A stretch of 28,093 bases of DNA, taken from NCBI GenBank assembly GCA_043819385.1, contig JBDREW010000015.1:1-28093 (forward strand), read 5' to 3'. Both the position numbers and the translations under genes were made by a program. This document shows positions 1,979 through 27,664 of this stretch, in pieces. The notes below the pieces were generated by a model. The model was not told the DNA's origin and did not search any database. It saw nothing but the letters and a program-made list of their open reading frames with translations. How positions within the stretch are numbered: position 1 is the first letter of the stretch; the number at the start of each line of letters is the position of its first letter. This DNA is from Candidatus Nealsonbacteria bacterium (lineage in GTDB: Bacteria > Patescibacteriota > Minisyncoccia > Minisyncoccales > GWA2-38-27).

Positions 1979-2099
1979 CTTTTTACCCGGTTAAATAATT
2001 TTGTTAAAACAAAATTAGAAATTGATTTTAATCAATTTCTATTTAACTAAATTTAATTTTACCATAAAATTACTACATTAAAAATTAAGAATTGTTAAA

Positions 2100-2280
2100 A
2101 CTGAAAAAGAGAAAGGGAAAGCTAAAAAAATACTAGACCTCTTTAGAGAGATGAAAGAAGCTGGTAGAAGTTAGACCTCTTAATTATTAAAGAAAAAGGG
2201 AGAAAGATAGTAGGGGTCTGACCTCTTAAGAGGGGTGAGGAGAAAGCTAGTAGGGGTCTGACCTTTGTTCCAATTTCCAA
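2100..2280 (+). repeat. degenerate tandem array (~4 units of ~40 bp) related to the dispersed AGCTGG..CGACCTCT repeat family
   Basis: Recurring gaaag(a)agctgg...tagacctctt and agtaggggtctgacct units within a 688-bp non-coding stretch. Confidence 0.5.
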
Positions 2281-2290
2281 GTTATAAGCT
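2266..2290 (-). repeat. degenerate copy of heptamer module (gttccaatttccaagttataag, reverse complement of CTTATAA-CTTGGAA-like)
   Basis: Matches the end of the (GTTCCAA)16 array plus GTTATGAG at 12040-12060. Confidence 0.4.
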
Positions 2291-2371
2291 TTAATATTTT
2301 ATCCCCTTTATATTATTATTTTATTTATGGTAAAATAAATATATTAAAAAATGTATTTAATATATATTTTC

Positions 2372-2424
2372 ATCGCTCGCTCGAAAATATGAAAGTAAAC
2401 TTCCGCATTCCTCTCGCTCGCTTA
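2372..2424. repeat. GCTCGCTCG-flanked element, same family as 4187-4237 but inverted orientation and decayed
   Basis: gctcgctcgaaaatatgaaagtaaacttccgcattcctctcgctcgct aligns with the reverse complement of the 4187-4237 element. Confidence 0.5.
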
Positions 2425-2666
2425 AAAATGAAAAGTGATAAATATTTGAATTTGTTTTTATTAAATTGCACTTATTTCAACATTTAACAATTTTAATTTC
2501 TGTTTTTAGATTTTTAATTTAAGAATATATAATTTTACATTAGCGAATCAAGGTTCTAACGAACGAAATGAATTAGGTTCTTAAAATTTTAATTTTTAAT
2601 ATGTCATTTTGAATTTTGCTATCGTTCACGAGGAACTTGTTCCTATTTAATTTTTAATTTTATTAT

Positions 2667-3083
2667 ATGGATTATTCAAAAGAACAACTTGATGAACTTT
2701 ATGAAAATCTTCCAGAAAATCTTCAAGAAGCTGTTTTCTCTGAGAAAAATGGAACTATTATTTATAATTCATGTATAAAAAACAAAATCGAAAAAGATGA
2801 AGAAATAAAACAGGTTTCTAAATATGTTGGATATGTTTTATTGGGACTTCTATCTCCAAATGATTTCCAAAAAAGTTTAGAAGAAAAAGTAGGAATAAAA
2901 AAAGAAAAAGCAATCCAAATTTATTCAGAAATAAATAGATCCATTTTTTTCTCAGTTAAAAACAGTTTAGAAGCTCTTTATGAAATAAAACTAAAAGATA
3001 CTCCTATAAAGATAACAAAAGATTCTCCTATTCTAAAAAATAATCTAAAATCAAAAGACACTTACAGAGAACCAATAGAATAA
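2667..3083 (+). CDS. hypothetical protein (first gene of prgI-virB4 block)
   Basis: 138-aa ORF with an ATG start. It is acidic and Lys-rich with no recognisable motif. Confidence 0.5.
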   Translation: MDYSKEQLDELYENLPENLQEAVFSEKNGTIIYNSCIKNKIEKDEEIKQVSKYVGYVLLGLLSPNDFQKSLEEKVGIKKEKAIQIYSEINRSIFFSVKNSLEALYEIKLKDTPIKITKDSPILKNNLKSKDTYREPIE

Positions 3084-3098
3084 TTTTTTATCAATTTT

Positions 3099-3524
3099 AT
3101 GCAATTTACAGTACCAAAATTTATTGAAAACAAACCAAAAATAATAGGTCCGCTTACTTTTAAACAATTTGTTTTTGTTGGAACAGCGGGTGGCATTTGC
3201 CTTTTTCTTTATTTTATCATTCCCATCTCTCTTTTTATAATCATAACCATATTTTTATTAGGCGGAGCTTTTGCTTTAGCTTTTATTAAAATTGGAAAGG
3301 ACCCTTTACCTGTTGTTATAAGAAATCTTCTTGTTTACAATTTTAATCCAAAAATTTATCTTTGGAAAAAAGAAATAGGCACTCCAAAAACAATAATATT
3401 AAAAAAGAAAGAAAAAATACCTGCTTTTATAAAAAATCAAGAAGACAAAAAAACTGAATTAAAAGTAACAAGAAATAGCAAATTAGACAGATTACTAACT
3501 AAAATTGCTACAAAAAACAAATGA
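3099..3524 (+). CDS. PrgI/VirB3-like small two-TM T4SS protein
   Basis: 141 aa. The N-terminus MQFTVPKFIENKPKIIGPLTFKQFVFVG is followed by two hydrophobic helices. It sits immediately upstream of VirB4 and is translationally coupled to it (ATGA overlap), as for Tn916 orf17/PrgI. Confidence 0.5.
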   Translation: MQFTVPKFIENKPKIIGPLTFKQFVFVGTAGGICLFLYFIIPISLFIIITIFLLGGAFALAFIKIGKDPLPVVIRNLLVYNFNPKIYLWKKEIGTPKTIILKKKEKIPAFIKNQEDKKTELKVTRNSKLDRLLTKIATKNK

Positions 3525-4171
3525 AAGAATCATCAACTCAAGATTTTTTAGAATTTGAACAAATAAAAAACGGGATTATCATTTTAAAAAATAAAGCATT
3601 AAGATCAGTTTTAATGACTTCTTCTTTGAATTTTGCTTTAAAATCTGAAGAAGAGCAACAATCTATTTTATATCAATTTCAAAACTTTTTGAATTCTTTA
3701 GATTTTTCAACTCAAATCCTTGTTCAATCAAGAAAATTAAATATAACTGGCTATTTAGATAAATTAAGAGAAATTGAAAAAAAAGAAAAAAGCGAATTAC
3801 TTAAAATACAACTTGATGAATATAGAAAATTTATAGAAAAAATATTATCCCAAGGGACTATTATGCAAAAAAGTTTCTATGTAATTGTCCCTTTTTCAAT
3901 TATGGAAACAAAGGAAACATCAACTATTAAAAAAGGACTCTTACCTAAAATCATTCCAGAATTAACTGAAGAAGAGTTTAATAGAGCAAAAACCCAACTT
4001 TTACAAAGGGTAGAATTTGTATCTTTAGGATTAAGAGGATTTGGACTTCAATCTTCTCCTTTAAATACATTAGAAATTATTGAACTTTTCTGGGGACTTC
4101 ATCATCCGTCAGAAGCTGAAAAAGGATATTACCCAGAATTTCCACTTGATTTAGATTTAGAAGAAGAATAA
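3521..4171 (+). CDS. VirB4/TrbE-family ATPase, N-terminal domain (5' half of a split gene)
   Basis: 216 aa. The segment FEQIKNGIIILKNKALRSVLMTSSLNFALKSEEEQQSILYQFQNFLNSLDFSTQILVQS matches the conserved N-terminal region of Gram-positive VirB4 homologues (Tn916 Orf16/TcpF/PrgJ type) from memory. The ORF ends 184 bp before the ATPase ORF, which is in a different frame. Confidence 0.6.
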   Translation: MKESSTQDFLEFEQIKNGIIILKNKALRSVLMTSSLNFALKSEEEQQSILYQFQNFLNSLDFSTQILVQSRKLNITGYLDKLREIEKKEKSELLKIQLDEYRKFIEKILSQGTIMQKSFYVIVPFSIMETKETSTIKKGLLPKIIPELTEEEFNRAKTQLLQRVEFVSLGLRGFGLQSSPLNTLEIIELFWGLHHPSEAEKGYYPEFPLDLDLEEE

Positions 4172-4186
4172 ATTTATTTATTTTCA

Positions 4187-4338
4187 AGCGAGCGAGAGAA
4201 ATGTGAAAGCTTGCTTTCACATTTCCGAGCGAGTGCTGAAAATGTATGTATTAAATACATTTTTTAATACCCCCACCCCTTGGGGTGGGATAAATATAAG
4301 TCTTTTGGGTGGGGTATAATACCCCAACCAAAAGTTCA
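4187..4338. repeat. block of four hairpins/palindromes filling the gap between the VirB4 halves
   Basis: The four elements are 4187-4237 agcgagcgagagaaatgtgaaagc/ttgc/tttcacatttccgagcgagtgct, 4240-4266 aaaatgtat-gtattaa-atacattttt, 4268-4291 ccccacccc-ttgg-ggtggg, and 4296-4330 cttttgggtggggtat-aat-accccaaccaaaag. Confidence 0.7.
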
Positions 4339-4355
4339 ATATATTCATATTTATT

Positions 4356-6161
4356 ATGAAATTACCATTTACAAAACAATTTAAAAGGAGAGAGAAAATC
4401 ATAGAACTTCCTGTACCATCTCAATCTGTTCAAATTTCTGATGTTATTGCTCCTTCTTTTATTGAAGTTAAGCAAAATCATATCAAAATAGGAGAACGTC
4501 TTGCTAAAACCTATTTTATTTTTTCATATCCAAGATATTTAACTACTGGATGGCTTTCTCCAATAATAAATCTAAATGTCCCAATGGATATTTCTTTTTA
4601 TCTTCATCCTGTTGAATCAGGAAAAATTTTAAAACAATTAAGAAGAAGAGTTACTGAAGTCCAAGCAGAAATTGGCGAAAAAGAAGAAAAAGGACAAATT
4701 AGAGACCCACAATTAGAAACAGCTTATGGCGATTTAGAAGAATTAAGAGACAAGCTCCAAACTGCCCAAGAAAGGATGTTTTATTTTGGATTATACCTAA
4801 CTATTTATGCTGATTCCGAAAAAGAACTAAGAGACACTGAAACAAACTTAAGATCAATTTTAGAATCTAGATTAATTTATATTAAGCCCGCTCTTTATCA
4901 ACAAAAAGAAGGATTTGTTTCTACTTCTCCATATAATTTAGACGTTCTAATGATTTCTAATTTGATGAACACTGGGCCTTTGTCAAGTATGTTTCCATTT
5001 ATTTCTTTTGATTTGAGTTCAAATGAAGGAATTCTTTATGGAATTAATAGGCACAACAATTCACTTGTTTTATTCGACCGATTTACTTTAGCAAATGCAA
5101 ATTCAGTAATTTTTGGAATATCAGGAGGAGGAAAATCCTATGCTATAAAATTAGAAATTTTAAGATATTTAATGCTTGGAACTGATGTTATAATTTTAGA
5201 CCCTGAAAATGAATATAAGTTTCTTTCAGATGCTGTTGGCGGGTCTTTTTTTAATATATCTTTGGCCTCTCCACATCATCTTAATCCATTTGATTTACCA
5301 CAACCAAGAGAAGATGAACTCGTAGAAGATGTTTTAAGAACAAACATTATGAATTTAGTTGGATTGATAAGAATAATGCTTGGTGGATTGACACCAGAAG
5401 AAGACGCAATTATTGATAGCGGATTAACTGAGACCTATGCTGCAAAAGATATTACTGCTAAATCAGATCCAAAACTATGGGGAAAAGAAGATGGATTAGA
5501 ATTTCCTATTATGAGTGATTTTGAAGAAGTTCTTTCAACAATGGAAGGAGCAGAATCATTAGTAAGACGACTTCAAAGATTTACCAAAGGAGTCTATTCA
5601 AGTTTTTTTAATCAACGAACTAATATAGATGTAGATAAAAGAATGGTTGTTTTTGGTATTCGTAATATGGAAGACGAACTTCGTCCAATGGCTTTATTTA
5701 TGATTTTAAGATTTATTTGGAAAACCGTTAGTGCCAAAATGAAAAAACGACTTTTAGTTATTGATGAGGCATGGTGGTTAATGCAAAATGAAGATGGTGC
5801 TTCTTTCTTATTTGGAACAGTTAAAAGGGCTAGAAAATACTGGCTTGGAGTTACTACTATTACCCAAGATGTAGCTGATTTTATGAAATCTGAATATGGT
5901 CAACCAATTATTACTAATTCATCACTTGCTTTATTGATGAAACAAAATCCAGCAACAATAGAAGTTGTTAAAAAAACTTTCAACCTAACTGAAGAAGAAA
6001 AGCTTTTACTTTTAGAAACACCCGTTGGAGAAGGTATATTTTTTGCCGGAACAAAACATGTTTTAGTTAAAATATTAGCTTCATATGCCGAAGATCAAAT
6101 AATTACAACTTCCCCTGAAGAAGTTGAGAAAATAAGACAAGCAAAAAAAGAATTAGAATAA
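4356..6161 (+). CDS. virB4: VirB4/TrbE/PrgJ-family T4SS ATPase (ATPase part)
   Basis: 601 aa with Walker A GISGGGKS, Walker B LLVIDEAW, and the IGERLAKTYFIFSYPRYLTTGWL and ILDPENEY motifs characteristic of VirB4 ATPases. Confidence 0.85.
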   Translation: MKLPFTKQFKRREKIIELPVPSQSVQISDVIAPSFIEVKQNHIKIGERLAKTYFIFSYPRYLTTGWLSPIINLNVPMDISFYLHPVESGKILKQLRRRVTEVQAEIGEKEEKGQIRDPQLETAYGDLEELRDKLQTAQERMFYFGLYLTIYADSEKELRDTETNLRSILESRLIYIKPALYQQKEGFVSTSPYNLDVLMISNLMNTGPLSSMFPFISFDLSSNEGILYGINRHNNSLVLFDRFTLANANSVIFGISGGGKSYAIKLEILRYLMLGTDVIILDPENEYKFLSDAVGGSFFNISLASPHHLNPFDLPQPREDELVEDVLRTNIMNLVGLIRIMLGGLTPEEDAIIDSGLTETYAAKDITAKSDPKLWGKEDGLEFPIMSDFEEVLSTMEGAESLVRRLQRFTKGVYSSFFNQRTNIDVDKRMVVFGIRNMEDELRPMALFMILRFIWKTVSAKMKKRLLVIDEAWWLMQNEDGASFLFGTVKRARKYWLGVTTITQDVADFMKSEYGQPIITNSSLALLMKQNPATIEVVKKTFNLTEEEKLLLLETPVGEGIFFAGTKHVLVKILASYAEDQIITTSPEEVEKIRQAKKELE

Positions 6162-6235
6162 TATAGTAAAATTAAAAATCAAAATGCAAAATGCAAAATA
6201 ACAAATTAAAAATCAAAATGGGAGAGGAGGGAAAA

Positions 6236-6300
6236 AGCTGGAAAGAGCCCCGACCTCTCTTAGAGAGGGAGAGGAAGTTTTTTAGAGGTCGGGGTTCGGG
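6236..6300 (+). repeat. dispersed structured ~65-bp repeat (copy 1): AGCTGGAAAGAGCCCCGACCTCTCTTAGAGAGGGAGAGGAAGTTTTTTAGAGGTCGGGGTTCGGG; internally deleted partial copy at 6341-6366
   Basis: Inverted repeat CCCCGACCTCT / AGAGGTCGGGG enclosing a CTCTCTTAGAGAG palindrome. Near-identical copies at 27665-27727 (+) and 21238-21310 (-). Confidence 0.8.
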
Positions 6301-6424
6301 AAAGGGAAATTAAATATTAAAACGGAAAGAGAGAAAGGAAAGCTGGGAAGAGGTCGGGGCTCGGGAGATGGAGAAGGAAAGATTAAAAATTAAAATCAAA
6401 ATGAAAGGAGAAAAAAATAAATAA

Positions 6425-6880
6425 ATGGAAAAAGATAACTCAAAACAAGAAAATAATTTAGAAGAAGAAAAACCAAAGCCAATTCTCAGTCAAGGGGAAA
6501 TGAAATTTCCAAAAGTTGAAATTGGTATGGGAGCTATTTTTAGCCCAGAAGCATTAGTGATGTTTTCTCTTGCTGGAATACTTGATATAATTGGATTTCT
6601 TCTTCTTTGTTTTGCATTAGATGATCTCTGGATTCTTGATACAACCGGACTAATACTTATTGGTTCTTGGATGTTTTTTAGAACAGGAAGCATTCCTACA
6701 TCTAAAAGATTAAGACAAAATAAACAAAATCCTACCTCAGAAATAAAAAAGAAAATGGGAAGAAAAATTTTAAAAAGATTAGGATTAGCTTTTTTTATTG
6801 AAGCAATACCATGGATTGGAGGTCTTGTTCCATCTTGGACTATAGCTGTTTATTTTGAACTTAAAAATAATCCACTATAA
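6425..6880 (+). CDS. hypothetical small membrane protein
   Basis: 151 aa with 2-3 hydrophobic helices. It lies between virB4 and the pilin-fusion genes. Confidence 0.5.
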   Translation: MEKDNSKQENNLEEEKPKPILSQGEMKFPKVEIGMGAIFSPEALVMFSLAGILDIIGFLLLCFALDDLWILDTTGLILIGSWMFFRTGSIPTSKRLRQNKQNPTSEIKKKMGRKILKRLGLAFFIEAIPWIGGLVPSWTIAVYFELKNNPL

Positions 6881-6900
6881 AAACAAAGAAAGAATATAGA

Positions 6901-6948
6901 TTTACGGGGGTCTTACCCCCGGAGCTCCGGGGGTAAGACCCCCGTAAA
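6901..6948. repeat. REP-like 48-bp perfect palindrome (tttacgggggtcttacccccggag|ctccgggggtaagacccccgtaaa), centre GGAGCTCC
   Basis: Its reverse complement equals itself. It belongs to the same family as 802-845. Confidence 0.8.
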
Positions 6949-6964
6949 TTCTTTCTATAAATTA

Positions 6965-9022
6965 ATGGATAATGAAAAAAAAACAAAAGATATAAAAAGA
7001 GTTTTTTTTGGATTTTTAATCCTCTTTTTTTTATTTTTTACAAATATTGTTTTTGCTTTAGAGGTTGATTATCCATCATTTCCTGGAATACCAGATATCA
7101 ACAATTCAACATCAATGGAAGATATCACTATTTATAGGTTTAGATTTATTATTATAATTTCTGGATTTATAGCTTTATTATCTTTAGTAATAGCTGGAGC
7201 TCGTTATCTTACCTCAACCGGAAAACCAGATAAAATGGCGTCTGCCAAAGAACAAATCTCAAATGCTTTTTTTGGTCTTTTACTTTTATTGTCATCATTC
7301 CTTTTACTTCAAGCCATAAGCCCTAAATTTGTTGAATTAGGAATAACAAAACCAGAAAAAATTGAAACACCAGAAATTATAGAAACATCCGACTTCCCAA
7401 TTCAAGAGTTTAGGTCATCAATATATACTGAAATCCCTTTTGGAAAAATAATTGAACAATATATATTAGAAAATAAAAATACAATTGAAGAAGATAAAAA
7501 AGACAAAAGAAAATCAAGAATGGAAAGAATTTTAGATATTGGAGAAAACTCATTACAACTTGGCGAAAAATTAAAAAAACAAAGTGAAGAATTAAAAGAA
7601 CTTGCTCAAAAATGCGATTGTACTCAATTAAAAACTTGCTGTGAAAATTCTAATCCAGGGCCTGCCTGCACAAGTAATCTTTGTGTTTCAAAACCAGGAT
7701 GTACTGGAGACCCATGTAAAAATTCAAGAGATAATATCCAAAAAAAAGAAAAAGAAAATTTAAAAGCAATGTATGAGGGAACAGAAGTTAAACAAGATGA
7801 TATTTCTGGAAATTCTTCTCAAGTCACAACTAGCTTAAGAACTGAACAAGAAAGGGCTTCCCAAGAAATTCGACTTATAAAATATGAGATAGATAAAATA
7901 GAAAGAGCGGAAACCTTTATGATAGAATGTCCATTATGGTCAATAACAAATTTATCTGATTATTTAGATACAAAAAACTTTTATTTAGAAAAAAAATGGA
8001 GATTTGAGCCAGTTAATTTTTGGTCGGATATAAGGGTAATTGATGATTGGGCAACTGTTTATTGTGCAGTAAGTGGTAATACTTGGGAATCAAATTATCA
8101 AGAATCATCTGGCAAGATAGAAGATCTTTCAAAATCAGTGAAACGATCATATCAAGGATTTTCTAGCGACAAAGAACCAGTCACTTGTACAACTGAAATT
8201 TCAATTGGTGAGCTTATGGATAGAGCCAAAAGAACTGGATATAAATTAGTAGAAAGATTAGAAAAAATTATTGATTTGAATGAACAATTAACAAAAGCTG
8301 TTAATGACCTTCATACATTAGTAAGTCAATGCTCATCTCTCGGACCATCCGCTGATCCTCCACGAGCAGGTTGTTTTTCTCAATGCCATAAAACAATTCT
8401 TAACGCTTGTATTAAACAATGTATAGGTTTAGCTCCAGGATGGCAAGGACCTTGCCCAGCTCAAAAAATTGAAGAAAAAATTAAAGAAATTAAAGATATT
8501 GTAGAAGGAGTTCCAAACCAACCAGCTGAAAATGAAGAAAAAAAGGAAAAAGAAGGGATAAAAGATGTACTTGAAGCCAAGAAAAAAACAAAAAAAGAAG
8601 CTATTGAAGATAACGCAACAAGAGAACAAATAGGTATAAAACCAATTGTCAATGAAGTTGTTCCAAAAATAATTGAAGATTTGGCTGGAATGGTCAGAAA
8701 TCCTATTAAAAAATGTGTTTCTGGATTTACAGGGATAAGTCAAGTATTAAGCTGTAGCAATAGTATTAATGGAATAGGGCCAGAAGATAAATTAATTAAA
8801 GAATGTTGTTATAACGAAAAATGGTTTCAAGAATGTCTTGGTCAATGTTATTTAGAGGGTCCTAAAAATGAATCATCTGATAATAATTCAACAGGAAAAA
8901 AAGAGGAAAGCGAATATAAAAAATGTTTAAAAAGCTGTCAAGATAAAAAAGCCAAAGAAACTAAAATAGACGCAATATCTGATTGTCTTCATTTAATTAA
9001 TTTCTATTGTTGCTCACCATAA
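6965..9022 (+). CDS. VirB2/TrbC-like pilin-domain protein with long Cys-rich/coiled-coil C-terminal extension (paralog 1, 685 aa)
   Basis: Signal peptide, then LEVDYPSFPG, then a hydrophobic helix ...ISGFIALLSLVIAGARYLTSTGKPDKMASAKEQISNAFFGLLLLL... that aligns with the short pilin at 27067-27501. The C-terminal ~530 aa carry multiple CxxC/CC clusters and Lys/Glu-rich coiled coil. Confidence 0.7.
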   Translation: MDNEKKTKDIKRVFFGFLILFFLFFTNIVFALEVDYPSFPGIPDINNSTSMEDITIYRFRFIIIISGFIALLSLVIAGARYLTSTGKPDKMASAKEQISNAFFGLLLLLSSFLLLQAISPKFVELGITKPEKIETPEIIETSDFPIQEFRSSIYTEIPFGKIIEQYILENKNTIEEDKKDKRKSRMERILDIGENSLQLGEKLKKQSEELKELAQKCDCTQLKTCCENSNPGPACTSNLCVSKPGCTGDPCKNSRDNIQKKEKENLKAMYEGTEVKQDDISGNSSQVTTSLRTEQERASQEIRLIKYEIDKIERAETFMIECPLWSITNLSDYLDTKNFYLEKKWRFEPVNFWSDIRVIDDWATVYCAVSGNTWESNYQESSGKIEDLSKSVKRSYQGFSSDKEPVTCTTEISIGELMDRAKRTGYKLVERLEKIIDLNEQLTKAVNDLHTLVSQCSSLGPSADPPRAGCFSQCHKTILNACIKQCIGLAPGWQGPCPAQKIEEKIKEIKDIVEGVPNQPAENEEKKEKEGIKDVLEAKKKTKKEAIEDNATREQIGIKPIVNEVVPKIIEDLAGMVRNPIKKCVSGFTGISQVLSCSNSINGIGPEDKLIKECCYNEKWFQECLGQCYLEGPKNESSDNNSTGKKEESEYKKCLKSCQDKKAKETKIDAISDCLHLINFYCCSP

Positions 9023-9027
9023 AAAAA

Positions 9028-10626
9028 ATGTTTAAAAAAATCATTATTCTAATATCTGCTTTTTTAATTATTGGTTTTATTTTTGCTCCTATTTCTTATG
9101 CTCTTGAAACTAATTATCCATCAGTCCCCGGAGCTTCACAACCATCAGACCAAACATCTTTACCAGATTTTGTAAAATATATTTTTGTACTTTTAATCGC
9201 TGGATCTGGAATTATTGCTATATTTAGTTTAACAATAGCTGGATTCCGTTATTTAAATTCAGGAGGAAATCCAGAAAAAATAAAGCAAGCAAGAGGTCAA
9301 GTATTATCAGCTTTTTGGGGAATTATGATTTTATTAGGTTCTTGGGTTATTCTAAATATTATCAATCCAAAATTAACTTCTTTAGAATTAGAAGACCCAA
9401 TTCCTGTTCCTGGTGTAGAAATACCTGCTCCTCCAATTTATTCTATTCCTACTTCAGATCTTTTATTAAGAGTAAAATTATTAGTTGAGGCAACAAAAAA
9501 AACTCCTGATTATATAAAAGAAACAGCTAAAAAAATAAAAGAATTAACTGATAAGTGTGATTGTGGAAATACTCAATCCATTTGTGCTTGTGAAAAAGGA
9601 GGACAATCATCATTAGATAAAAAACCATGGGATTATAGTTTAGATAATTACGATACAGATATCTTTTTATTATCTTATGAAAAAAAACCAATAATTATTC
9701 CTAAAACATTTAATGATAGCATAGAACCAATCGGAGCAGGTGGAGAAACTCCATTTGGTGGTGGTGGTATAGAACCAATTGGAGCAGGTGGAGAAACTCC
9801 ATTTGGTGGTGGTATAGAACCAATTGGAGCAGGTGGAGAAACTCCATTTGGCGGTGGTGGTATAGAACCAATTGGAGCAGGTGGAGAAACTCCAGGAGAG
9901 CCTGGAGGAGAGCCTGGAGGAGAATCTGGAGGAGAACCCGAAGGAGAGCCCGAAGAAGGAGGACCAGATCAAAATTTAATTTGTAAACCAAAAACTTGCT
10001 ATATTGGACAATCCTCTAACCCTTGCCCTGACAAAGAAGATATTAAAAAATATGAAAAAGCTCTTATTGACCAAAAAGATATGATTTTCTATTATAAGAA
10101 TAGGGTATATGAAGAAAGAAATGATTTAACCACTGATATAGAACAATTTATAGATAAAGAAATATCTTGGTACGAAGAACAAATACAGGCTGAGGAAAAA
10201 TTAGAGGACTGGGGAGGATTAAAACAAAGAAAAATAGATTTTCTTCAAGAAAGAAAAAGCTGGTTAGAACAAGAAAAAAAATACAAACAAGAATTAATCC
10301 AAGAGCTTGAACAACTTGCTCAAATTATTGAAAAAATAGGAGATCCATCTATAAAAATTCCTCAACTATCAAATCAATGTTTAATAAATGTAAAAACAAA
10401 ATGTCAGGCAAGATGTAAACAAAGCAATGACAATGGATGTATTGATAAAGTAAAAGGGTGCGAACCAGACTCTTGTACGGGAGGAAATCCATGTTCAACT
10501 GGTGAGATACAATCTGAAATAAGTAAAATTGAACAAATTTCTCAAGAAATCAAAAGTAAATGTGATCAAATAATTTCTACTATAAACAATATAGAAAAAG
10601 AAAAAACTCCAACTAAAACGCTTTAA
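9028..10626 (+). CDS. VirB2/TrbC-like pilin-domain protein with repeat-containing Cys-rich extension (paralog 2)
   Basis: Same N-terminal architecture (ALETNYPSVPG, LPDFVKYIFVLLIAGSGIIAIFSLTIAGFRYLNSGGNPEKIKQARGQVLSAFWGIMILLGSWVILNIINP). The track start at 9007 is TTG; ATG at 9028 is more likely. Contains tandem IEPIGAGGETPFGGGG and GEPGG repeats and Cys clusters. Confidence 0.7.
   Translation: MFKKIIILISAFLIIGFIFAPISYALETNYPSVPGASQPSDQTSLPDFVKYIFVLLIAGSGIIAIFSLTIAGFRYLNSGGNPEKIKQARGQVLSAFWGIMILLGSWVILNIINPKLTSLELEDPIPVPGVEIPAPPIYSIPTSDLLLRVKLLVEATKKTPDYIKETAKKIKELTDKCDCGNTQSICACEKGGQSSLDKKPWDYSLDNYDTDIFLLSYEKKPIIIPKTFNDSIEPIGAGGETPFGGGGIEPIGAGGETPFGGGIEPIGAGGETPFGGGGIEPIGAGGETPGEPGGEPGGESGGEPEGEPEEGGPDQNLICKPKTCYIGQSSNPCPDKEDIKKYEKALIDQKDMIFYYKNRVYEERNDLTTDIEQFIDKEISWYEEQIQAEEKLEDWGGLKQRKIDFLQERKSWLEQEKKYKQELIQELEQLAQIIEKIGDPSIKIPQLSNQCLINVKTKCQARCKQSNDNGCIDKVKGCEPDSCTGGNPCSTGEIQSEISKIEQISQEIKSKCDQIISTINNIEKEKTPTKTL
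9715..9960 (+). repeat. intragenic tandem repeats: 48/45-nt unit x4 (IEPIGAGGETPFGG(G)G) followed by 12-15-nt GGAGAGCCTGGA-type units
   Basis: Direct near-identical nucleotide repeats visible at 9721-9900. They are GC-richer than the flanks. Confidence 0.85.
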
Positions 10627-10632
10627 TTTTTT

Positions 10633-11862
10633 ATGAAAAAAAACATTATTTTATTATTAATATTTCCTTTAATTCTGATTTTATTTTTTCCGTTAATTGT
10701 AAATGGACAAGGAACGGAACCACGTGCCTTAGAGCTTGAATATCCTTCTTTTCCACCCGAAGCTTCTGCGCCGACAAGCACTACATCTTTACCAGATTTT
10801 GTAAAATATATTTTTGTTTTTGCCATAATTATTTCTGGCTTTATCGCATTATTAGTTATTGTTTATGCTGGTTTTGAATACACGGCCTCAATAGGATCTC
10901 CTAACAAAATACAAAGTGCAAAAGATAAAATAAATGGTGCTATTATAGGTTTATTAATATTAGCTGTTTCTTGGTTAATTCTTGATACTATCAATCCTCA
11001 ATTAGTTATTTTCCGATTGCCAAGCGAATTGCCATCTGCTATCCCTGATATAAGTCCTGGAGTTTATTTATGTTCTCAAAGAGTAGATATTTTAGGATTT
11101 TGGCAAAAAAGACAACAAGCTGAACGCGAAGAAGGAACAACCCAAAAACAAACATTTCAAGAATTAACAGGAATACTAAAAACAATAGAACAATATTGTG
11201 CTCCAACTAACCCAGTTCAAACATCAGGAGATATTAGCTCAGATATTGAAGATAAAATTCAATATGTTTATCTTGTACCATCTTTCAGGGAAGCCCAATA
11301 TGGAGCAATCCTTTATGAAGAAAGAGGATTTCAAGGTAAAAGTAGCGTATTTTACGGAACATCAACAGGATCAGGAGGAGTTTCTACATTAGATAAACCA
11401 ACTGAATGGCCTGTACGGAACATTCAAGCATCTTCAGCACGAGTTTTTATACTTAACTTTAATCCAGCTCCATCATGGGAAGCAAGATTATTTGAATTAG
11501 TCCACTTTAATAGAGACGACATAAAAGGAAAAAAAACTCCTGAAGCATGTAAACCAGGAGAACAGGGTTCATCAACGGCAACAGGAAATTGTCAAATACC
11601 TAAAAATAAAGATAATAAAAATGAAGTTGGATCAGTAAATATTGAAGGTAGTATGTTTGTTATATTTTTAAAAGAAGGGGGTGATTGGACAAGCTCATCA
11701 GATAATTATATCCAAGCAAATCCAGGCAATACTGATTTAAACAATACAGTAATGGGCACATGGAAAAGAGAAGAATGTGTTGAAAAAAGAGAACCAGAAC
11801 TACGAGATAGATATTATCCATGTGCTGAAAGGGGAGTTGTTGTGGGTGCAGATTTTTATTAA
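10633..11862 (+). CDS. VirB2/TrbC-like pilin-domain protein with globular C-terminal extension (paralog 3, 409 aa)
   Basis: LELEYPSFPPE, LPDFVKYIFVFAIIISGFIALLVIVYAGFEYTASIGSPNKIQSAKDKINGAIIGLLILAVSWLILDTINPQL, then ~280 aa with scattered Cys. Confidence 0.7.
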   Translation: MKKNIILLLIFPLILILFFPLIVNGQGTEPRALELEYPSFPPEASAPTSTTSLPDFVKYIFVFAIIISGFIALLVIVYAGFEYTASIGSPNKIQSAKDKINGAIIGLLILAVSWLILDTINPQLVIFRLPSELPSAIPDISPGVYLCSQRVDILGFWQKRQQAEREEGTTQKQTFQELTGILKTIEQYCAPTNPVQTSGDISSDIEDKIQYVYLVPSFREAQYGAILYEERGFQGKSSVFYGTSTGSGGVSTLDKPTEWPVRNIQASSARVFILNFNPAPSWEARLFELVHFNRDDIKGKKTPEACKPGEQGSSTATGNCQIPKNKDNKNEVGSVNIEGSMFVIFLKEGGDWTSSSDNYIQANPGNTDLNNTVMGTWKREECVEKREPELRDRYYPCAERGVVVGADFY

Positions 11863-11864
11863 AA

Positions 11865-11885
11865 CTCATAACTCATAACTCATAA
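11865..11885 (+). repeat. (CTCATAA)3 heptamer repeat beginning at the stop codon
   Basis: taa-aa-ctcataa-ctcataa-ctcataa-ctt. Confidence 0.7.
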
Positions 11886-11887
11886 CT

Positions 11888-11915
11888 TAAAAAATCCAGC
11901 AAAGCTGGATTTTTG
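11888..11915. terminator. bidirectional rho-independent terminator (aaaaaatccagc-aaa-gctggattttt) between convergent genes
   Basis: 7-bp stem atccagc/gctggat, flanked by an A-run and a T-run. A near-identical hairpin lies at 17118-17145. Confidence 0.7.
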
Positions 11916-11939
11916 ATTAACTAATAACCAAGTTTATTA

Positions 11940-12051
11940 GTTCCAAGTTCCAAGTTCCAAGTTCCAAGTTCCAAGTTCCAAGTTCCAAGTTCCAAGTTCC
12001 AAGTTCCAAGTTCCAAGTTCCAAGTTCCAAGTTCCAAGTTCCAAGTTCCAA
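11940..12051. repeat. (GTTCCAA)16 perfect heptamer microsatellite
   Basis: Sixteen units counted from 11940 to 12051. It ends at the jag stop codon (12053-12055). Confidence 0.95.
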
Positions 12052-12052
12052 G

Positions 12053-12514
12053 TTATGAGATTCTTGGTTTTATAACTAATCTTCTTTCATCTTTTTCTCC
12101 AATACTTTCAGTTATTATATCGCTTCTGTTAGCTAATTCAAGATGAATAATCCTTCGTTCATAAGCGGACATTGGCATTAATATTTTTTCCTGACTTGTT
12201 AAAGCAACATCATTAGCAAAAGTTTTTACTATTTCTTTTAAATACTCAATTTTTTTCTCTTTATAATTATTAATATCAAGATTGATATAAAATGGTTGAT
12301 TGATTTTACGCATTAATACTCTTTTCAAAAGATGCTGAATCTCTGCTAATGTTTGTCCATTTTGACCAATTAAAATTTTTGGATCTCCTGTTCTCATATT
12401 TACAAAAATTGTTTGATCATCTACTTTAAGATTTTCAACGTCCAACTCAAAACTAGTTTTCTGAAAAAACTGATTAACTTCTGATTTAATTGTTTCTAAA
12501 TCATTGAAATCCAT
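12053..12514 (-). CDS. jag: Jag/KhpB RNA-binding protein (KH + R3H domains)
   Basis: R3H signature PMSAYERRIIHLELA...ESIGEKDERRLVI. It lies downstream of yidC, the conserved synteny. Confidence 0.8.
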   Translation of the reverse strand: MDFNDLETIKSEVNQFFQKTSFELDVENLKVDDQTIFVNMRTGDPKILIGQNGQTLAEIQHLLKRVLMRKINQPFYINLDINNYKEKKIEYLKEIVKTFANDVALTSQEKILMPMSAYERRIIHLELANRSDIITESIGEKDERRLVIKPRIS

Positions 12515-13268: not shown

Positions 13269-13368
13269 AAAAATTCAATTTACAATTTTCAATTTACAAT
13301 CAATTAACCAATGTTTCAATTTTCAAACAGCTTATAAGAATACCTGTTTTTATTAAAAATTGTTTCAT

Positions 13369-13400
13369 TCCTGCCCGCATTGCTATACAAAGCGTTGCAG
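13369..13400. repeat. degenerate GC-rich hairpin (cctgcccgcattgcta...agcgttgcagacgg), related to 25822-25860
   Basis: Shares CCTGCCCGCAT(C/T)GCTA..AAGCGTTGC with the copy upstream of comM. Confidence 0.4.
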
Positions 13401-13434
13401 ACGGAAAAAATTAAACTGAAATTAAAAATTAAAA

Positions 13435-15962: not shown

Positions 15963-17093
15963 ATGAAACTCGAAATACTACAAGAAAAATTAAAAAATGG
16001 ATTAAGTATTGTTGAAAAGATTTCTTCTAAATCTTTATCATTGCCTATTTTAAATAATATATTAATTTCTACTGAAAAGAATTTTTTGAATTTATCTGCT
16101 ACTGATTTAGAAATAGGTATTAATTGGTGGACATTAACTAAAATTGAAGAACAAGGGAAAATTACAATTCCTGCACGTTTGTTTTCTAGTTTTATTAGTT
16201 TACTTCCTAATCAAAAAATTAATATTTATTCAAAAGATAATAATCTTTTTATTGGATATGAAAAATATAAAACAGAAATAAAAGGATTATCTGCTGATGA
16301 ATTTCCTATTATTCCTAAAATTGAACAAGGCGAATTTATTATATTAGATTGTAATTCTCTTTGTCAAAGTTTGTCTCAAGTAGTTGATATTTCAGTTCCC
16401 TCTACGACAAGACCTGAAATATCTGGAATATATTTTTTATTTCAAAAAAATCAAATAACTATGGTTTCGACAGATAGTTTTAGATTAGGAGAAAAAAAGA
16501 TATTTTTAAAAGAAAACTCTAATTCAAAACAAGATTATTCTTTAATTATTCCTCAAAGAGCTATTAAAGAAATTATTAATATCTTTGGAGAGAAAAAAGG
16601 TAATTTAAAAATTTATTTTTCTCCAAATCAAGTAATGTTTGAACTTTTGATGGAAGAAACAGATCATCCTCAAATACAACTTATTTCTCGTTTGATTGAA
16701 GGAGAATATCCTAATTATAAAGAAATTATTCCTCCTAAACATACAACTCAAATTATTTTAGAAAGAAATGAACTTCTTAATCAAATTAAAACAGCTAGTT
16801 TATTTGGAGGAAAAATAAATGAAGTAAAATTAAAATCTGATCTTAAAAAAGGAGAATTAGAAATTTTTAGTCAAAGTTCTGATATTGGAAAACATGAATC
16901 AACTATTAAAGCTAAAATAGAAGGAGAAGAAGTTGAAGTTGCTTTTAATCATAGATTTTTATTAGATGGATTAATGAATATTAGAAGCGCTGAAATTATT
17001 TTAGAGCTTAATGGTGATTCAGGCCCAGGATTGTTAAAACCAGTAGGGGATGAAACATATTTGTATGTTGTTATGCCCATTAAAAATACATAA
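15963..17093 (+). CDS. dnaN: DNA polymerase III beta sliding clamp
   Basis: 376 aa. Position after dnaA and three-domain clamp-like sequence. Confidence 0.9.
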   Translation: MKLEILQEKLKNGLSIVEKISSKSLSLPILNNILISTEKNFLNLSATDLEIGINWWTLTKIEEQGKITIPARLFSSFISLLPNQKINIYSKDNNLFIGYEKYKTEIKGLSADEFPIIPKIEQGEFIILDCNSLCQSLSQVVDISVPSTTRPEISGIYFLFQKNQITMVSTDSFRLGEKKIFLKENSNSKQDYSLIIPQRAIKEIINIFGEKKGNLKIYFSPNQVMFELLMEETDHPQIQLISRLIEGEYPNYKEIIPPKHTTQIILERNELLNQIKTASLFGGKINEVKLKSDLKKGELEIFSQSSDIGKHESTIKAKIEGEEVEVAFNHRFLLDGLMNIRSAEIILELNGDSGPGLLKPVGDETYLYVVMPIKNT

Positions 17094-17095
17094 CT

Positions 17096-17119
17096 CATAA
17101 CTTGGAACTTGGAACTTAA
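17096..17119 (+). repeat. heptamer module (CTCATAA)1(CTTGGAA)2CTT starting at dnaN stop codon
   Basis: taa-ctcataa-cttggaa-cttggaa-ctt. CTTGGAA is the reverse complement of the TTCCAAG unit of the 16-copy array. Confidence 0.7.
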
Positions 17120-17145
17120 AAAATCCAGCGAAAGCTGGGTTTTTA
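17118..17145 (+). terminator. rho-independent terminator (aaaaaatccagcgaaagctgggttttt)
   Basis: Same hairpin family as 11888-11915. Follows dnaN. Confidence 0.7.
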
Positions 17146-18589: not shown

Positions 18590-18624
18590 AATACATAATA
18601 CTAAATACTAAATACTAAATACTT
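18590..18624. repeat. (AATACTA)~5 heptamer tandem repeat abutting the stop of the VirB6-like gene
   Basis: aatacat aatacta aatacta aatacta aatactt. Confidence 0.7.
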
Positions 18625-20977
18625 ATTTCTTTCCCTTAGGTGGTCGTTTATATCCTCCTGGACCTGTTGTACCTTTTGGTTTTTTTCCTGATCCCGAACC
18701 AATCCCCATCCCAAAAGGATGTTTCTTTTTTGAAGGAGGCGTTGTTCCAGCTCCAGCACCAGGAGTATATTGAGATCCGCCACCCGGAGGAGTTGATTTA
18801 CTACTGTCTGAAACTAAACTTGCTAAATATTGTGGAGCTTTCCAATCATTACCCCACATTTTTGGATCAGATAATCCTTTAAAGTATCCTGCTTTGCCAT
18901 ATTCTTTTTCTAAATATTTTACATATTCTCTTACAGCATCATCCATTCCTGTTTCTTTATCCATACTTGCATCTCCCTCTTGATGTTCTCCTATTTTATT
19001 CATAAGATCTTTATTTTTATTTAGAAATTCAGAATATGCTTTGTTCATTCCTTCCATAGATGCTTTTTGTCCTTGTTTAACTGTTCTATGTATTTGTATC
19101 CATCTATCTTTATCAAATTCAGCCATAGCAGGCTCTATAATATTTATATTTTTTAATGTTCCGGGTTCCATTTTGGCAATATGTTGTCCTCTTGATTCTT
19201 CTAATGCTTTTTGTATTGATTGTTTAGGAGATAAGGTCTTATATCCTGGTATATTTTGACCTGCTGCAATAGCAGCTAATCGAGGATCAGATCTTAAAAA
19301 AGAGCTTAAAAAACCTGATTTGAATAATGATTGAAATGGGCTTTCCATTATCTTTTTAAATTCTTTATCTTCCATAAGATCATTATCTGTAACATCTTTA
19401 ACATTTTTACCTAATCTTTCGGCAATTCCCTTGCCAAAATATTTTTTACCATCTTTAAATATATCATCAGCATCTCCTACATCAATAGTCTGTTTTAATC
19501 TTCCAGCAGCTTCTTTTCCTATTACTTTTTTAGTAAATACATCTGTTAAATTTGTTGGAGTAGAATATTTTTTTGCTTCTTCTTGAGATTTTAATACATC
19601 AGGACGAATTTCTCCATAATCTTTAATTTTTTGAGGAAAAAACCATCTAGCAATAGGTATTTTTTCTGTAACTGTTTTGCTTGCCCATCCAGCTAAATCT
19701 TTTATTTTTGTTTGTTCCTCGATCCATGGTTTAGCTCCTCCCCATACTTTTTTACCCATCCATCCCATTGCTCTTTTAGGGGCCTTATATCCCAACCATC
19801 CCATTGCTTTTTGAGGAGCCCTAGCTCCGATTGTGGTTAAGGCGCCTGCTCCCATAGCTGATGTTTGAAGTCCAAAAAGTAATCCAATAAAAAGAAAAGC
19901 AACTGGAACAACAAATATAAATATACTTGCGCCTGTACTTAAATTTGCAACAGAATATCCAAGTTTGTCTGTTTGACTTGCTAATGTTTCTCCTAAATAA
20001 AGAAAAAACATACAAGTAACTCCAATTAAAGACCATTGAATCATCTGGTTCCACCATATATTAAAATATTTTTGAGTGGCTGGTAAAATATACGAAACAA
20101 AAGCAAGTGGAGATAAAATAACTAAAATCCAAATAGCAATATATCTTACTGCAAAAATTAAAGCAAATAAAAGATAAACAATGGCCATTATAAAATTAAT
20201 TATGGCAAGGGCTGTTATTTTTCCTACTTTTTCCATTAATCCAGCTCTTGTTGAATCTCTTGTTCCAGCAGAGCTTGTAGCTTCCCACAGACCTGCTGCT
20301 TCTTTGTCAAAAGAATCCTTAGCTTTTGATACTAAGTTTGCACCAACGCTTGTTTCTCCATTGTCTCCTGCCAAAGCATTAAGAAAAAAATTCATAGAGA
20401 TATTTCCTGCATCAACAATTAATCCACAAATAACAGGAGCAAAGTTTACCAATAGAGCTATGATAATAAAAGTTACTAATATTTTTCTATCTTGATATTT
20501 ATCTAATCTTAAAATAGTTGCCAAAGCAATCCAAACAAGAACAAGAACAAGAGTCATATTAACAAATCCTTGAGTAACACTTAATCCAGTTGCAATTATT
20601 GGATTATCAGCAGGATTAGTGTAGCTAATATTAATAAAATTATCGCTTAATACCCATCTGGCAAGAGAGGAAGTGAGAGTAGCAAAAGTAAGGGTGACCA
20701 TTCCTATTGCCCACGGAACTGCTCCTATTAATGTTGAAACAATAGATTCTGGCAAGGACCACAAAGTATCCATCCATCCAGGTTCAGATTCTGCGCTTGT
20801 TGACGGTGTTATAGTAGGGTTATCTATATCAAAGTCCCATGGAGTTTGAGCTTGTACTGGAGATAATTGGTAAAAAAATAAATTAGCAAAAAGAAATAAA
20901 AATAAAAAACAAAAAAGCTTTTTTTTGTTTTTCAACAAAAGAGAAAAATCAAAGATTTTTAACAATTTTTTAATCAT
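18623..20977 (-). CDS. VirB6/TrbL-like polytopic membrane protein with Gly/Pro/Lys-rich C-terminal tail
   Basis: 784 aa with a signal peptide and at least 6 TM helices in the N-terminal 400 aa. The C-terminal half is hydrophilic, with a low-complexity PPGGGSQYTPGAGAG...KKPKG tail. Size and topology resemble Tn916 Orf15/TrbL. No sequence-level motif confirmed. Confidence 0.55.
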   Translation of the reverse strand: MIKKLLKIFDFSLLLKNKKKLFCFLFLFLFANLFFYQLSPVQAQTPWDFDIDNPTITPSTSAESEPGWMDTLWSLPESIVSTLIGAVPWAIGMVTLTFATLTSSLARWVLSDNFINISYTNPADNPIIATGLSVTQGFVNMTLVLVLVWIALATILRLDKYQDRKILVTFIIIALLVNFAPVICGLIVDAGNISMNFFLNALAGDNGETSVGANLVSKAKDSFDKEAAGLWEATSSAGTRDSTRAGLMEKVGKITALAIINFIMAIVYLLFALIFAVRYIAIWILVILSPLAFVSYILPATQKYFNIWWNQMIQWSLIGVTCMFFLYLGETLASQTDKLGYSVANLSTGASIFIFVVPVAFLFIGLLFGLQTSAMGAGALTTIGARAPQKAMGWLGYKAPKRAMGWMGKKVWGGAKPWIEEQTKIKDLAGWASKTVTEKIPIARWFFPQKIKDYGEIRPDVLKSQEEAKKYSTPTNLTDVFTKKVIGKEAAGRLKQTIDVGDADDIFKDGKKYFGKGIAERLGKNVKDVTDNDLMEDKEFKKIMESPFQSLFKSGFLSSFLRSDPRLAAIAAGQNIPGYKTLSPKQSIQKALEESRGQHIAKMEPGTLKNINIIEPAMAEFDKDRWIQIHRTVKQGQKASMEGMNKAYSEFLNKNKDLMNKIGEHQEGDASMDKETGMDDAVREYVKYLEKEYGKAGYFKGLSDPKMWGNDWKAPQYLASLVSDSSKSTPPGGGSQYTPGAGAGTTPPSKKKHPFGMGIGSGSGKKPKGTTGPGGYKRPPKGKK

Positions 20978-21237
20978 TAATATATTCTACCAAAAAATAA
21001 GTTATTAACATATGTGGAAAACAATTAAAAATTATATTTTTAATTGTTTTCTAATTTTGAATTATTAATTTTGAATTTTGAATAAATTTTTAATGACTTA
21101 ATTTTGAATTCCCGAGACCCGATCTCTATTATTAAAACTCATAATTTAGAACTTATAACTTTTTAAAATCTGACTTTTTTTATCTTTCCTTTCTTTCTAT
21201 TTTGATTTTTGATTTTTCTATTTTTCTTCCTTTCCTT

Positions 21238-21310
21238 CCCCCCGAGACCCGACCTCTAAAAAACTTCCTCTCCCTCTCGAAGAGAGGTCGGGTCTCTACC
21301 AACTTTCCCT
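21238..21310 (-). repeat. dispersed structured repeat, inverted copy (reverse complement: ggtagagacccgacctctcttcgagagggagaggaagttttttagaggtcgggtctcgggg); 17-bp fragment also at 21111-21127
   Basis: Matches 6236-6300 over ~55 bp in reverse orientation. Confidence 0.8.
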
Positions 21311-25797: not shown

Positions 25798-25821
25798 ATT
25801 TTAAATTATAATTATAAATTA

Positions 25822-25860
25822 CCTGCCCGCATCGCTACGCGAAGCGTTGCGGGCGGGTGA
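25822..25860. repeat. GC-rich long hairpin acctgcccgcatcgctacgcgaagcgttgcgggcgggt upstream of comM
   Basis: Imperfect ~16-bp stem. A degenerate copy lies at 13369-13400. Confidence 0.6.
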
Positions 25861-25922
25861 GTTATTGTGATATTAATATTAATTATAACAGATATATTTC
25901 ACAGAGCAGAATTAAAAGATAC

Positions 25923-25959
25923 AAAAAACTAGCGGAGGGCAGGGCTCCGCTAGTTTTTT
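25923..25959. terminator. bidirectional terminator aaaaaactagcggag-ggcaggg-ctccgctagtttttt
   Basis: 9-bp GC stem flanked by an A6 run and a T6 run. Confidence 0.7.
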
Positions 25960-26116
25960 AAATTAAAAAAGAATTAAAAAAGGTTAGTAACGAAATACAT
26001 ATAAATTGACCAAGCACCAGCAATTGTTATTACTTTTATCATAATAAAAACTTAATTGTTTAATTAGTTTCACTTTAAAATAAATTACATTTTTTGTAAA
26101 CTATTAGATTAAAGAA

Positions 26117-26164
26117 CTTACGGAGAGGTACTCTCCGGAATTCCGGAGAGTACCTCTCCGTAAG
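26117..26164. repeat. 48-bp perfect palindrome cttacggagaggtactctccggaa|ttccggagagtacctctccgtaag centred on GGAATTCC, followed by a half-copy and a T-run
   Basis: The reverse complement is identical to the sequence. Each arm is itself the hairpin cggagag-gta-ctctccg. A related single hairpin lies at 26935-26966. Confidence 0.85.
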
Positions 26165-26285
26165 TCTCCGTAAGTTTTTTGTTTGTAGGTTTTGACTTTA
26201 CAAAATTAATTTAATTTAGTAATGTTTGATTAGGACTTTTACAAAAACAATATAATGTTTACGTTGCGAAAAAAGGAGAAAACAG

Positions 26286-26884: not shown

Positions 26885-26934
26885 TATGTGCGGGGATCGG
26901 ACCCCCGCAAGTTATTTTATGATTAATTTAGGTT

Positions 26935-26966
26935 GCGGAGAGGTGCTCTCCGTAAGTTTTTCAAAT
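26935..26966. repeat. single-hairpin copy of the cggagag-gtN-ctctccgtaagttttt family
   Basis: gcggagaggtgctctccgtaagttttt. Confidence 0.6.
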
Positions 26967-27622: not shown

Positions 27623-27664
27623 TATATATAAAATAAATATTTAAAATAGAAAGTAAAAGGGGAA

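Follow-up and report, generated by a model that had tools for sequence, protein, structure and literature searches.

TrsD homologues with remote homology to the N terminus of VirB4 are the most abundant type IV secretion system (T4SS) component of Patescibacteria, as described by Quinonero-Coronel et al. (2025, PMC12102498). That study found 2,272 TrsD homologues, of which 1,664 were associated with VirB4, and noted that the T4SS of these bacteria often lies near the replication origin; the TrsD homologue of Southlakia epibionticum is essential (Wang et al. 2023, cited in PMC12102498). The two-gene VirB4 arrangement is already in the literature (PMC12102498). Here we analyzed a 28,093-bp contig of a Candidatus Nealsonbacteria metagenome-assembled genome (MAG); this whole stretch is referred to as the window. 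In this window VirB4 is encoded by two open reading frames (ORFs) on the forward strand, ORF1 (3521-4171, 216 aa) and ORF2 (4356-6161, 601 aa), with a 184-bp spacer between them that is filled with hairpins. The locus probably represents the usual Patescibacteria T4SS operon, in which VirB4 is made as two polypeptides, and the 184-bp block a later, genome-specific expansion of the spacer by hairpin repeats. The ORF1 product is identical to NCBI protein ABH956_00645.

Comparison with the Patescibacteria TrsD plus VirB4 system (PMC12102498) revealed the same set and order of genes (PrgI/VirB3-like, TrsD-like, VirB4 and VirB2-like pilins), and likewise a VirB6/TrbL gene located elsewhere, proximity to dnaA and dnaN, and a small protein resembling the VirB4 N terminus. 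Nothing essential differs, except that the spacer is unusually long and hairpin filled here; spacers are not a topic of that paper. In the passages searched, it treats TrsD only as remotely homologous to the VirB4 N terminus and not as its missing complement. The TrsD-TrsE/TraD-TraE proteins of the staphylococcal plasmids pGO1 and pSK41 (MPF-FATA class) have the architecture seen here: in pSK41, trsD (25886-26569, approximately 227 aa) follows small membrane proteins and is positioned directly upstream of a gene for a 672-aa VirB4-type ATPase (26584-28602). These plasmid systems serve conjugation, whereas the present locus lies on the chromosome close to the origin, and the window ORFs scanned included no recognizable relaxase. 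Full-length monoderm VirB4 (CD1110 family, Tn916 Orf16/PrgJ type), whose profile is covered colinearly by ORF1 and ORF2, and TrwK of R388, whose chain is matched by the predicted ORF1 fold, are single polypeptides of approximately 750 to 820 aa; the window instead encodes two polypeptides, with the break in a linker. Most of the finding is ordinary and was known before, and the hairpin family described below is a minor unexplained residue.

ORF1 and ORF2 as complementary parts of VirB4

A preliminary description of this DNA had reported VirB4 as two ORFs in different frames, with a gap (4172-4355) holding four hairpins, and the coordinates, lengths, and frames were confirmed. It had assigned to ORF2 the rest of VirB4 including both Walker motifs; Walker A (GISGGGKSY) and Walker B (LLVIDEAW) can indeed be read from the translation. 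ORF2 comprises the remainder of the N-terminal domain and the P-loop ATPase and matched the Pfam P-loop_TraG family (E value of 1.3e-27; 97 bits against a cut-off of 25.8) and the NCBIfam profile for CD1110-type VirB4 (NF045971, 752 positions; 356.9 bits against a cut-off of 325). Residues 24 to 569 of ORF2 corresponded to profile positions 184 to 732. ORF2 alone is without a complete N-terminal domain: the first 180 to 230 or so residues of a full-length VirB4 are absent, and in the profile and fused-relative alignments this part is supplied by ORF1. The core is encoded among mating-pair-formation genes, i.e., PrgI, pilins, and a gene with a weak TrbL/VirB6-like match.

The assignment of ORF1 to the N-terminal region of VirB4 was borne out by VirB4 profiles, by a fused relative, and by the predicted fold. 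ORF1 corresponds to approximately the first 215 residues of a full-length VirB4. Residues 8 to 138 aligned with positions 3 to 134 of the NCBIfam CD1110-type profile, and comparison with two VirB4 equivalog profiles gave E values of 2.6e-06 and 2.9e-07, both at N-terminal positions. The mycoplasma VirB4 profile yielded the same colinear picture of ORF1 followed by ORF2 as the CD1110-type profile. Comparison of the end of ORF1 and the start of ORF2 with intact VirB4 revealed that the two are colinear and abut without overlap. In precomputed annotation, the TraC-like family PF26593 is assigned to ORF1 and to its best 120 of 4,791 homologues; our own Pfam scan of ORF1 did not return PF26593, and the scanned copy of Pfam possibly lacks that model.

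A profile of ORF1 homologues gave no match to the sequences of solved structures even at an E value of 10, and a comparison of folds was therefore needed. The AlphaFold model of ORF1 (predicted local distance difference test score of 77.8) found its best solved-structure matches in the TrwK/VirB4 chains of R388, with probabilities of 0.99 to 1.0, template modeling scores of up to 0.49, and modest E values of approximately 6e-3.

Searching 1.84 billion proteins by profile and inspecting the best 150 cluster representatives (50% clustering) revealed a full-length fusion in one of the 150, P0256, with 797 aa; the other 149 were 125 to 443 aa long. P0256 originates from a Patescibacteria MAG that shares the origin-proximal synteny of the window, the gene order being PrgI, fused VirB4, jag, yidC, rnpA, dnaA, and dnaN. 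Residues 2 to 201 of ORF1 aligned with residues 4 to 214 of P0256 (40% identity; E value of 2e-43) and residues 27 to 590 of ORF2 with residues 230 to 788 (55% identity). These positions place the break in an unconserved linker of approximately 15 residues, and coding sequence is neither missing nor duplicated relative to the fused form. Judged by three independent lines, i.e., profile, fused relative, and predicted fold, ORF1 and ORF2 are the two halves of one VirB4. The TrsD-like protein and the core are exactly complementary on both the full-length profile and the fused relative, which makes it plain that "TrsD" is not an accessory protein but the N-terminal piece that the VirB4 core lacks.

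The VirB4 core reaches approximately 1,120 to 1,270 aa in several related species (loci L021, 1608-5399, and L041, 6641-10447, as well as L015, L020, and L077). In the two that were scanned, L021 and L041, the extra length is explained by an intein with a LAGLIDADG homing endonuclease, located after about residue 300 and before the bulk of the P-loop domain match.

The ORF1-ORF2 junction in related species

The locus was fetched from 80 GTDB species, two of which were truncated at contig ends, leaving 78 comparable loci. In all 78, the two parts are separate ORFs, and the ORF1 homologue, which ends in TAA (51 loci), TGA (20), or TAG (7), stands immediately upstream of the VirB4 core gene on the same strand, as in the window. 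The best 120 of 4,791 matches to ORF1 are likewise all stand-alone proteins, of 205 to 227 aa. Both the start of ORF2 (MKLPF…) and the position of the ORF1 end are conserved among relatives. Across the 78 loci the median spacer length is 7 nt: 13 junctions are overlaps (mostly ATGA), 40 measure 0 to 20 nt, 19 measure 21 to 100 nt, 4 measure 101 to 183 nt, and 2 measure 184 nt or more. In the nearest relatives (77% and 73% identity) the spacers are 14 and 4 nt long. The 184-bp block was absent from every relative examined, and exact-pattern searches of 81 loci recovered no copy of the gap hairpins. Long spacers at this junction in relatives often contain hairpins of their own that are unrelated to those of the window (for example, in L027, L030/L045, L015, and L078), which identifies the junction as a permissive spacer that was invaded repeatedly and independently.

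The preliminary description had offered two alternatives. According to the first, an intact virB4 gene was split by the insertion of a hairpin cluster, which would leave a recently disrupted and possibly nonfunctional ATPase gene. The absence of the block from all relatives examined and the different frames of the two ORFs are in keeping with such an event. However, all 78 relatives are split without the block, and their genes stop and start properly at the corresponding position; the ends and starts of the window ORFs, including the MKLPF… start, match those of the relatives, and nothing is missing or duplicated in comparison with the fused form. An insertional split is therefore almost certainly the wrong explanation. 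The second alternative, that the lineage naturally makes VirB4 as two polypeptides, is the right one: where the orthologous loci were compared for the block, all 78 had the two-gene arrangement and none had the block, an outcome that the preliminary description itself had named as refuting an insertional split. On the compared sequences, the split of VirB4 is ancestral to the lineage and is located in a poorly conserved linker. What appears to be a broken essential ATPase gene is the normal, conserved two-gene VirB4 of Patescibacteria, neither a pseudogene nor a sign of gene decay.

The block might also be an artefact, created by repeat-induced chimeric joining during metagenome assembly, since repeats of this kind can mislead short-read assemblers. 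Such an origin is very improbable: the genes on either side are intact and follow the canonical order, the end of the spacer is AT-rich like the spacers of relatives, and similar blocks are present in other spacers of the same contig.

The N-terminal subdomain of one-piece VirB4 contacts VirB3 and the membrane, judging from the R388 structures and what is generally known of VirB4. The TrsD-like protein of approximately 215 aa carries this subdomain and the core of approximately 600 aa the rest of the N-terminal domain together with the ATPase; the small protein presumably joins the core and the PrgI/VirB3-like protein in trans, so that a complete VirB4 unit is rebuilt at the membrane. Translation of the two genes is probably coupled, or nearly so, in most relatives. 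In the window, the structured 184-nt spacer would abolish such coupling, so that virB4 must presumably initiate independently; no obvious Shine-Dalgarno sequence is present upstream of 4356, but other genes of the window likewise have none. Junctions range from a 4-nt overlap to 460 nt with an apparent extra ORF, which indicates that tight translational coupling is common but not obligatory.

The 460-nt spacer belongs to L019 (924-1383); its apparent small ORF (MKYYDLEERCLRFAKR…) was judged by eye from the sequence, and by the same by-eye reading it resembles four-helix-bundle "23S rRNA intervening sequence" proteins. In 19 of the 78 relatives both VirB4 parts lie in the same frame. In some of these, including L025, L028, L035, L044, L051, L057, L060, and L067, only a stop codon and one to three further codons separate the parts, so that occasional stop-codon read-through could in principle give a fused protein.

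Hairpin repeats in the spacers

The intercistronic spacer (4172-4355) folds into four hairpins: a GCGAGCGAG hairpin (4179-4244), a hairpin with an all-AT stem followed by T6 (4248-4270), a CCCCACCCC/GGGGTGGG hairpin (4272-4289), and a GGGTGGGG/CCCCAACC hairpin (4302-4334). The minimum free energy of the block is -69.4 kcal/mol compared with -37.4 kcal/mol for dinucleotide shuffles (z = -8.5), and none of 200 shuffles folded as well. The preliminary description had called the first element palindromic. Its hairpin is real, but the GCGAGCGAG motifs are direct repeats flanking a perfect 12-bp inner hairpin and do not form a palindrome; they oppose each other so that G-C pairs alternate with tandem G.A mismatches. 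The two end hairpins described at the same time are also real, whereas the GGGGTGGG word did not clearly stand out in number (7 occurrences against 3.1 expected, equalled in 4 of 100 shuffles). The proposal of a terminator-like hairpin inside the operon was not upheld: the candidate has an all-AT stem followed by six T, the gap contains no site with a GC stem and a T run, and a terminator scan of positions 2000 to 7000 detected no intrinsic terminator within 4172-4355. Rfam 15 gave no match to the gap at gathering thresholds, and one match at chance level (E value of 0.87). A target-site duplication was considered in the two copies of ATTTATT (4172-4178 and 4349-4355) and was set aside because the repeat is too weak in a sequence of 75% AT, and also because two or more types of element are combined in the block.

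An inverted and decayed twin of the GCGAGCGAG element, claimed earlier for 2372-2424, does exist but is longer, extending from 2342 to 2432 on the reverse strand (90-bit covariance match). It corresponds to the first 91 to 95 nt of the block, i.e., to the GCGAGCGAG and AT hairpins, and is located in the divergent intergenic region upstream of the T4SS operon. The twin matches 4177-4269, with arms 83 to 96% complementary and a mean column identity of 88% when aligned, and its own hairpin is largely lost (fold z = -1.6). Five GCGAGCGAG-like words were counted in the window against 0.4 expected, all of them within the block and the twin. As a long inverted repeat that exactly brackets the 5' module, the two arms could bound an invertible segment of 1.74 kb, containing the promoter region and the first three genes, that acts as an on/off switch. 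This explanation carries very little probability: no serine or tyrosine site-specific recombinase was recognized among the scanned ORFs, where only a Y1 transposase (32-772) was found, the arms have diverged by 12%, and the observed orientation is the canonical one of all relatives. The ORF1 protein is found on one contig only, so that no alternative orientation is on record.

The spacer between ORF1 and ORF2 is not the only expanded one. The junction downstream of ORF2 (6162-6424, 263 bp; fold z = -4.2) contains hairpin repeats of another family and measures 4 bp in L082 and 1 bp in L084, where the downstream gene is homologous (60% identity). The following junction (6881-6964, 84 bp; fold z = -15.8) contains a 50-nt palindrome (6900-6949) and measures 7 and 10 bp in the same two loci. 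Three consecutive operon junctions are thus 184, 263, and 84 nt long, compared with 14 and 4, 4 and 1, and 7 and 10 nt in the nearest relatives. When the 17 window spacers of at least 30 nt were folded individually and scored against shuffles, 9 had z values of -4 or lower. Several repeat families are present in the window, with two to four copies each per 28 kb.

A gene for a Y1 (IS200/RAYT-like) transposase is located on the reverse strand at 32-772 (Pfam Y1_Tnp, 44.2 bits against a cut-off of 23), and HUH-like (HIH) and YIHTNP motifs are visible in its ORF. It is adjoined by a 44-nt perfect double palindrome, made up of TCCGGGGGTCTTGCCCCCGGA and GCTCCGGGGGCAAGACCCCCGGA, at 802-845 (region 795-866), the twin of which is the palindrome at 6900-6949 (region 6896-6967), between two genes of the secretion operon. 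For this palindrome family, the arrangement is consistent with a REPIN/RAYT-like system. On its other side, the flank of the transposase gene is cut off by the contig end.

REP/REPIN/BIME and MITE-like repeats are the closest described counterparts of the gap elements: these are likewise short, GC-enriched, imperfect spacer palindromes that occur in mosaic clusters and are tolerated between cistrons. As in REPIN systems with a RAYT, a Y1 transposase with RAYT as its best NCBIfam match is found here beside a REPIN-like double palindrome. Unlike in REP/RAYT systems, the gap elements differ from the palindrome family adjacent to the RAYT-like gene, and the RAYT match falls below the curated cut-off. 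In REP/RAYT systems the same family flanks the RAYT gene and has many dispersed copies; within the window the gap elements did not show this pattern. It is also unusual for REPs that the GCGAGCGAG core recurs in contigs of 39 to 50% GC (29% in the window) with unrelated neighbor genes.

Under the preferred interpretation, hairpin repeats of at least two kinds would have landed in an ancestral spacer of probably 5 to 15 nt or so. The same expansion would also have struck the next two operon junctions and about half of the longer window spacers. Most likely, these elements are REP/MITE-type DNA repeats that are selfish or nearly neutral and that the Y1 (RAYT-like) transposase possibly spreads. 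As side effects, the two halves would no longer be translationally coupled, and mRNA stability might change or transcription might partly terminate between them; the hairpins themselves may modestly affect mRNA stability or read-through.

The first hairpin of the block (4172-4250, forward strand) belongs to a conserved family. In this family the outer stem and the inner hairpin vary, and the conserved part is a AAGCGAGCGAGAG/CCGAGCGAG(T/C)GC core that contains tandem G.A mismatches. A covariance model (R1), built from the two window copies and one metagenome copy, found copies in L003, L006, L052, L136, L176, and L196. L003 has at least four tandem copies of approximately 79 nt just upstream of the operon, L006 a single copy that precedes the first operon gene by 50 nt, and L052 a single copy upstream of the operon. 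In L003 the array of hairpin units (4335-4937) is interrupted by an N run and may have broken the assembly. The copies in L136 (76 bits), L176 (64 bits), and L196 (52 bits), recovered by a pattern that forced the core motif, are strong matches in contigs of other base composition. In L176 the copy is flanked by two aminoacyl-tRNA synthetase genes, and in L196 it follows an HU gene, beside a terminator; relative to the unrelated genes next to them (ArgS, HU, glycosidase-like), the three copies are antisense or 3'. Among 11 aligned matches, in an alignment fitted to model R1 that includes an antisense self-match, 93.5% of pair cells were standard, compared with 37 to 54% in slid-partner controls, and compensatory changes were seen in 14 of 24 pairs.

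Wider searches added little to the family. A metagenome scan with a specific 21-base pattern gave no matches. Those listed for a looser pattern were mostly chance matches in GC-rich contigs (median GC of 0.63), and covariance scoring of the listed matches identified only L136, L176, and L196 as real hairpin copies. In a scan of viral contigs, two of 24 pattern matches reached an E value of 0.01 or lower with the covariance model, both of them weak (L208, 27 bits; L217, 24 bits). A literature search for the motif string returned only unrelated primer and cDNA sequences. The GCGAGCGAG hairpin family is conserved but uncharacterized, and its tandem-G.A core makes it a small lead for cataloguers of bacterial repeats or RNA motifs.

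Several observations weigh against the preferred interpretation of a two-polypeptide VirB4 whose spacer was expanded by hairpin repeats. With regard to the proteins, ORF1 matches the NCBIfam TrsD profile only weakly (E value of 0.012; 15.4 bits against a cut-off of 200), and hhalign comparison of the ORF1 profile with TrsD of pSK41 gave a short, weak match of 38 columns at a probability of 16%. With regard to the repeats, the 28-kb window shows no more than two copies of the GCGAGCGAG element; the score of the transposase against its best NCBIfam match, REP_Tyr_transpos, is 46 bits, below the cut-off of 80; and the palindrome family adjacent to the transposase gene is absent from 4172-4355, which leaves the link between gap and transposase circumstantial. 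Finally, three relatives have family members in front of the same operon, so that a regulatory role is possible, and the compensatory changes indicate pairing kept by selection or by the copying mechanism, beyond the expectation for pure junk. We do not claim that ORF1 belongs to the staphylococcal TrsD family proper, as the similarity is marginal.

These last two points, the upstream copies in L003, L006, and L052 and the compensatory changes, also speak for a regulatory explanation, in which the block or its GCGAGCGAG hairpin would be a cis-regulatory element (a structured RNA, or a site associated with a promoter or operator) copied from the upstream region of the operon, giving virB4 its own control or setting the ratio of the two halves. 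REP sequences between cistrons play such a ratio-setting role in E. coli operons. The window has one related hairpin upstream of the first operon gene and one before virB4, and weak promoter-like hexamers (9 of 12 matches) occur on both strands of the hairpin. However, promoter-like sites in the region do not exceed the shuffle expectation (30 against 22.2; standard deviation, 4.7), no Rfam match was obtained, and a spacer of 20 nt or less suffices in most relatives. The orientation is also inconstant, the upstream copy of the window being inverted and those of L136, L176, and L196 having the placement given above. Varying orientation relative to neighboring genes favors a palindromic repeat at the DNA level over a cis-acting RNA, and cis-regulation is on balance unlikely. 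It is more doubtful still that the hairpin is a new kind of element under functional constraint (either a structured RNA or a protein-binding site in single-stranded DNA) normally placed before the Nealsonbacteria T4SS operon, the second, inverted copy here tying the ATPase core to the same control or creating an invertible 5' module.

Operon context and minor repeats

The window is AT-rich (29% GC overall; GC of approximately 0.21 to 0.42 per 500 nt) and contains the neighborhood of a replication origin, with rnpA, yidC, jag, dnaA (14358), and dnaN (15963). The first operon gene (2667-3083, forward strand, 138 aa) has no significant Pfam family; its homologues also open the operon in relatives, as in L003 and L006 (shared …YPKEQL…LYKNLPKDLQEA…). 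It is followed on the same strand by a gene for a PrgI family (VirB3-like) membrane protein (3099-3524; Pfam PrgI, E value of 4.4e-07, 30.8 bits against a cut-off of 27), which overlaps the start of ORF1 by 4 nt. The T4SS gene set of the window further includes four genes with Pfam T4SS_pilin domain matches (6965, 9007, 10633, and 27067) and a TrbL/VirB6-like gene (18623-20977), for which the match is weak (21.6 bits; cut-off, 25.9).

Further repeats were observed in the spacers. A hairpin family with the motifs AGAGCCCCGACCTCTCT…AGAGGTCGGGG has three to four copies (6234-6300, 6339-6365, 21233-21297, and 27663-27736), one just 3' of virB4 and one just 3' of a tRNA gene (27551-27622). GC-rich hairpin pairs are formed by CCTGCCCGCAT…GCGTTGC…GG (13338-13404 and 25790-25856) and by ACGGAGAGGTACTCTCCG (26109-26165 and 26933-26964); they reinforce the picture of a small genome that harbors many small families of repeats. 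Approximately 20 tandem AGTTCCA heptamers are located at 11911-12078, between the last pilin gene and jag, and related words (AACTCAT/AACTTGG runs) occur in other spacers (2267-2302, 11856-11903, 17071-17132, and 21129-21161). Similar GTTACAA/GTTATAA runs are present just upstream of the operon in L003. Within a coding sequence, the pilin-domain ORF at 9007-10626 contains four tandem IEPIGAGGETPFGGG(G) repeats at 9707-9892, encoded by DNA units of 45 to 48 nt, and this stretch may be a variable surface region of the protein.

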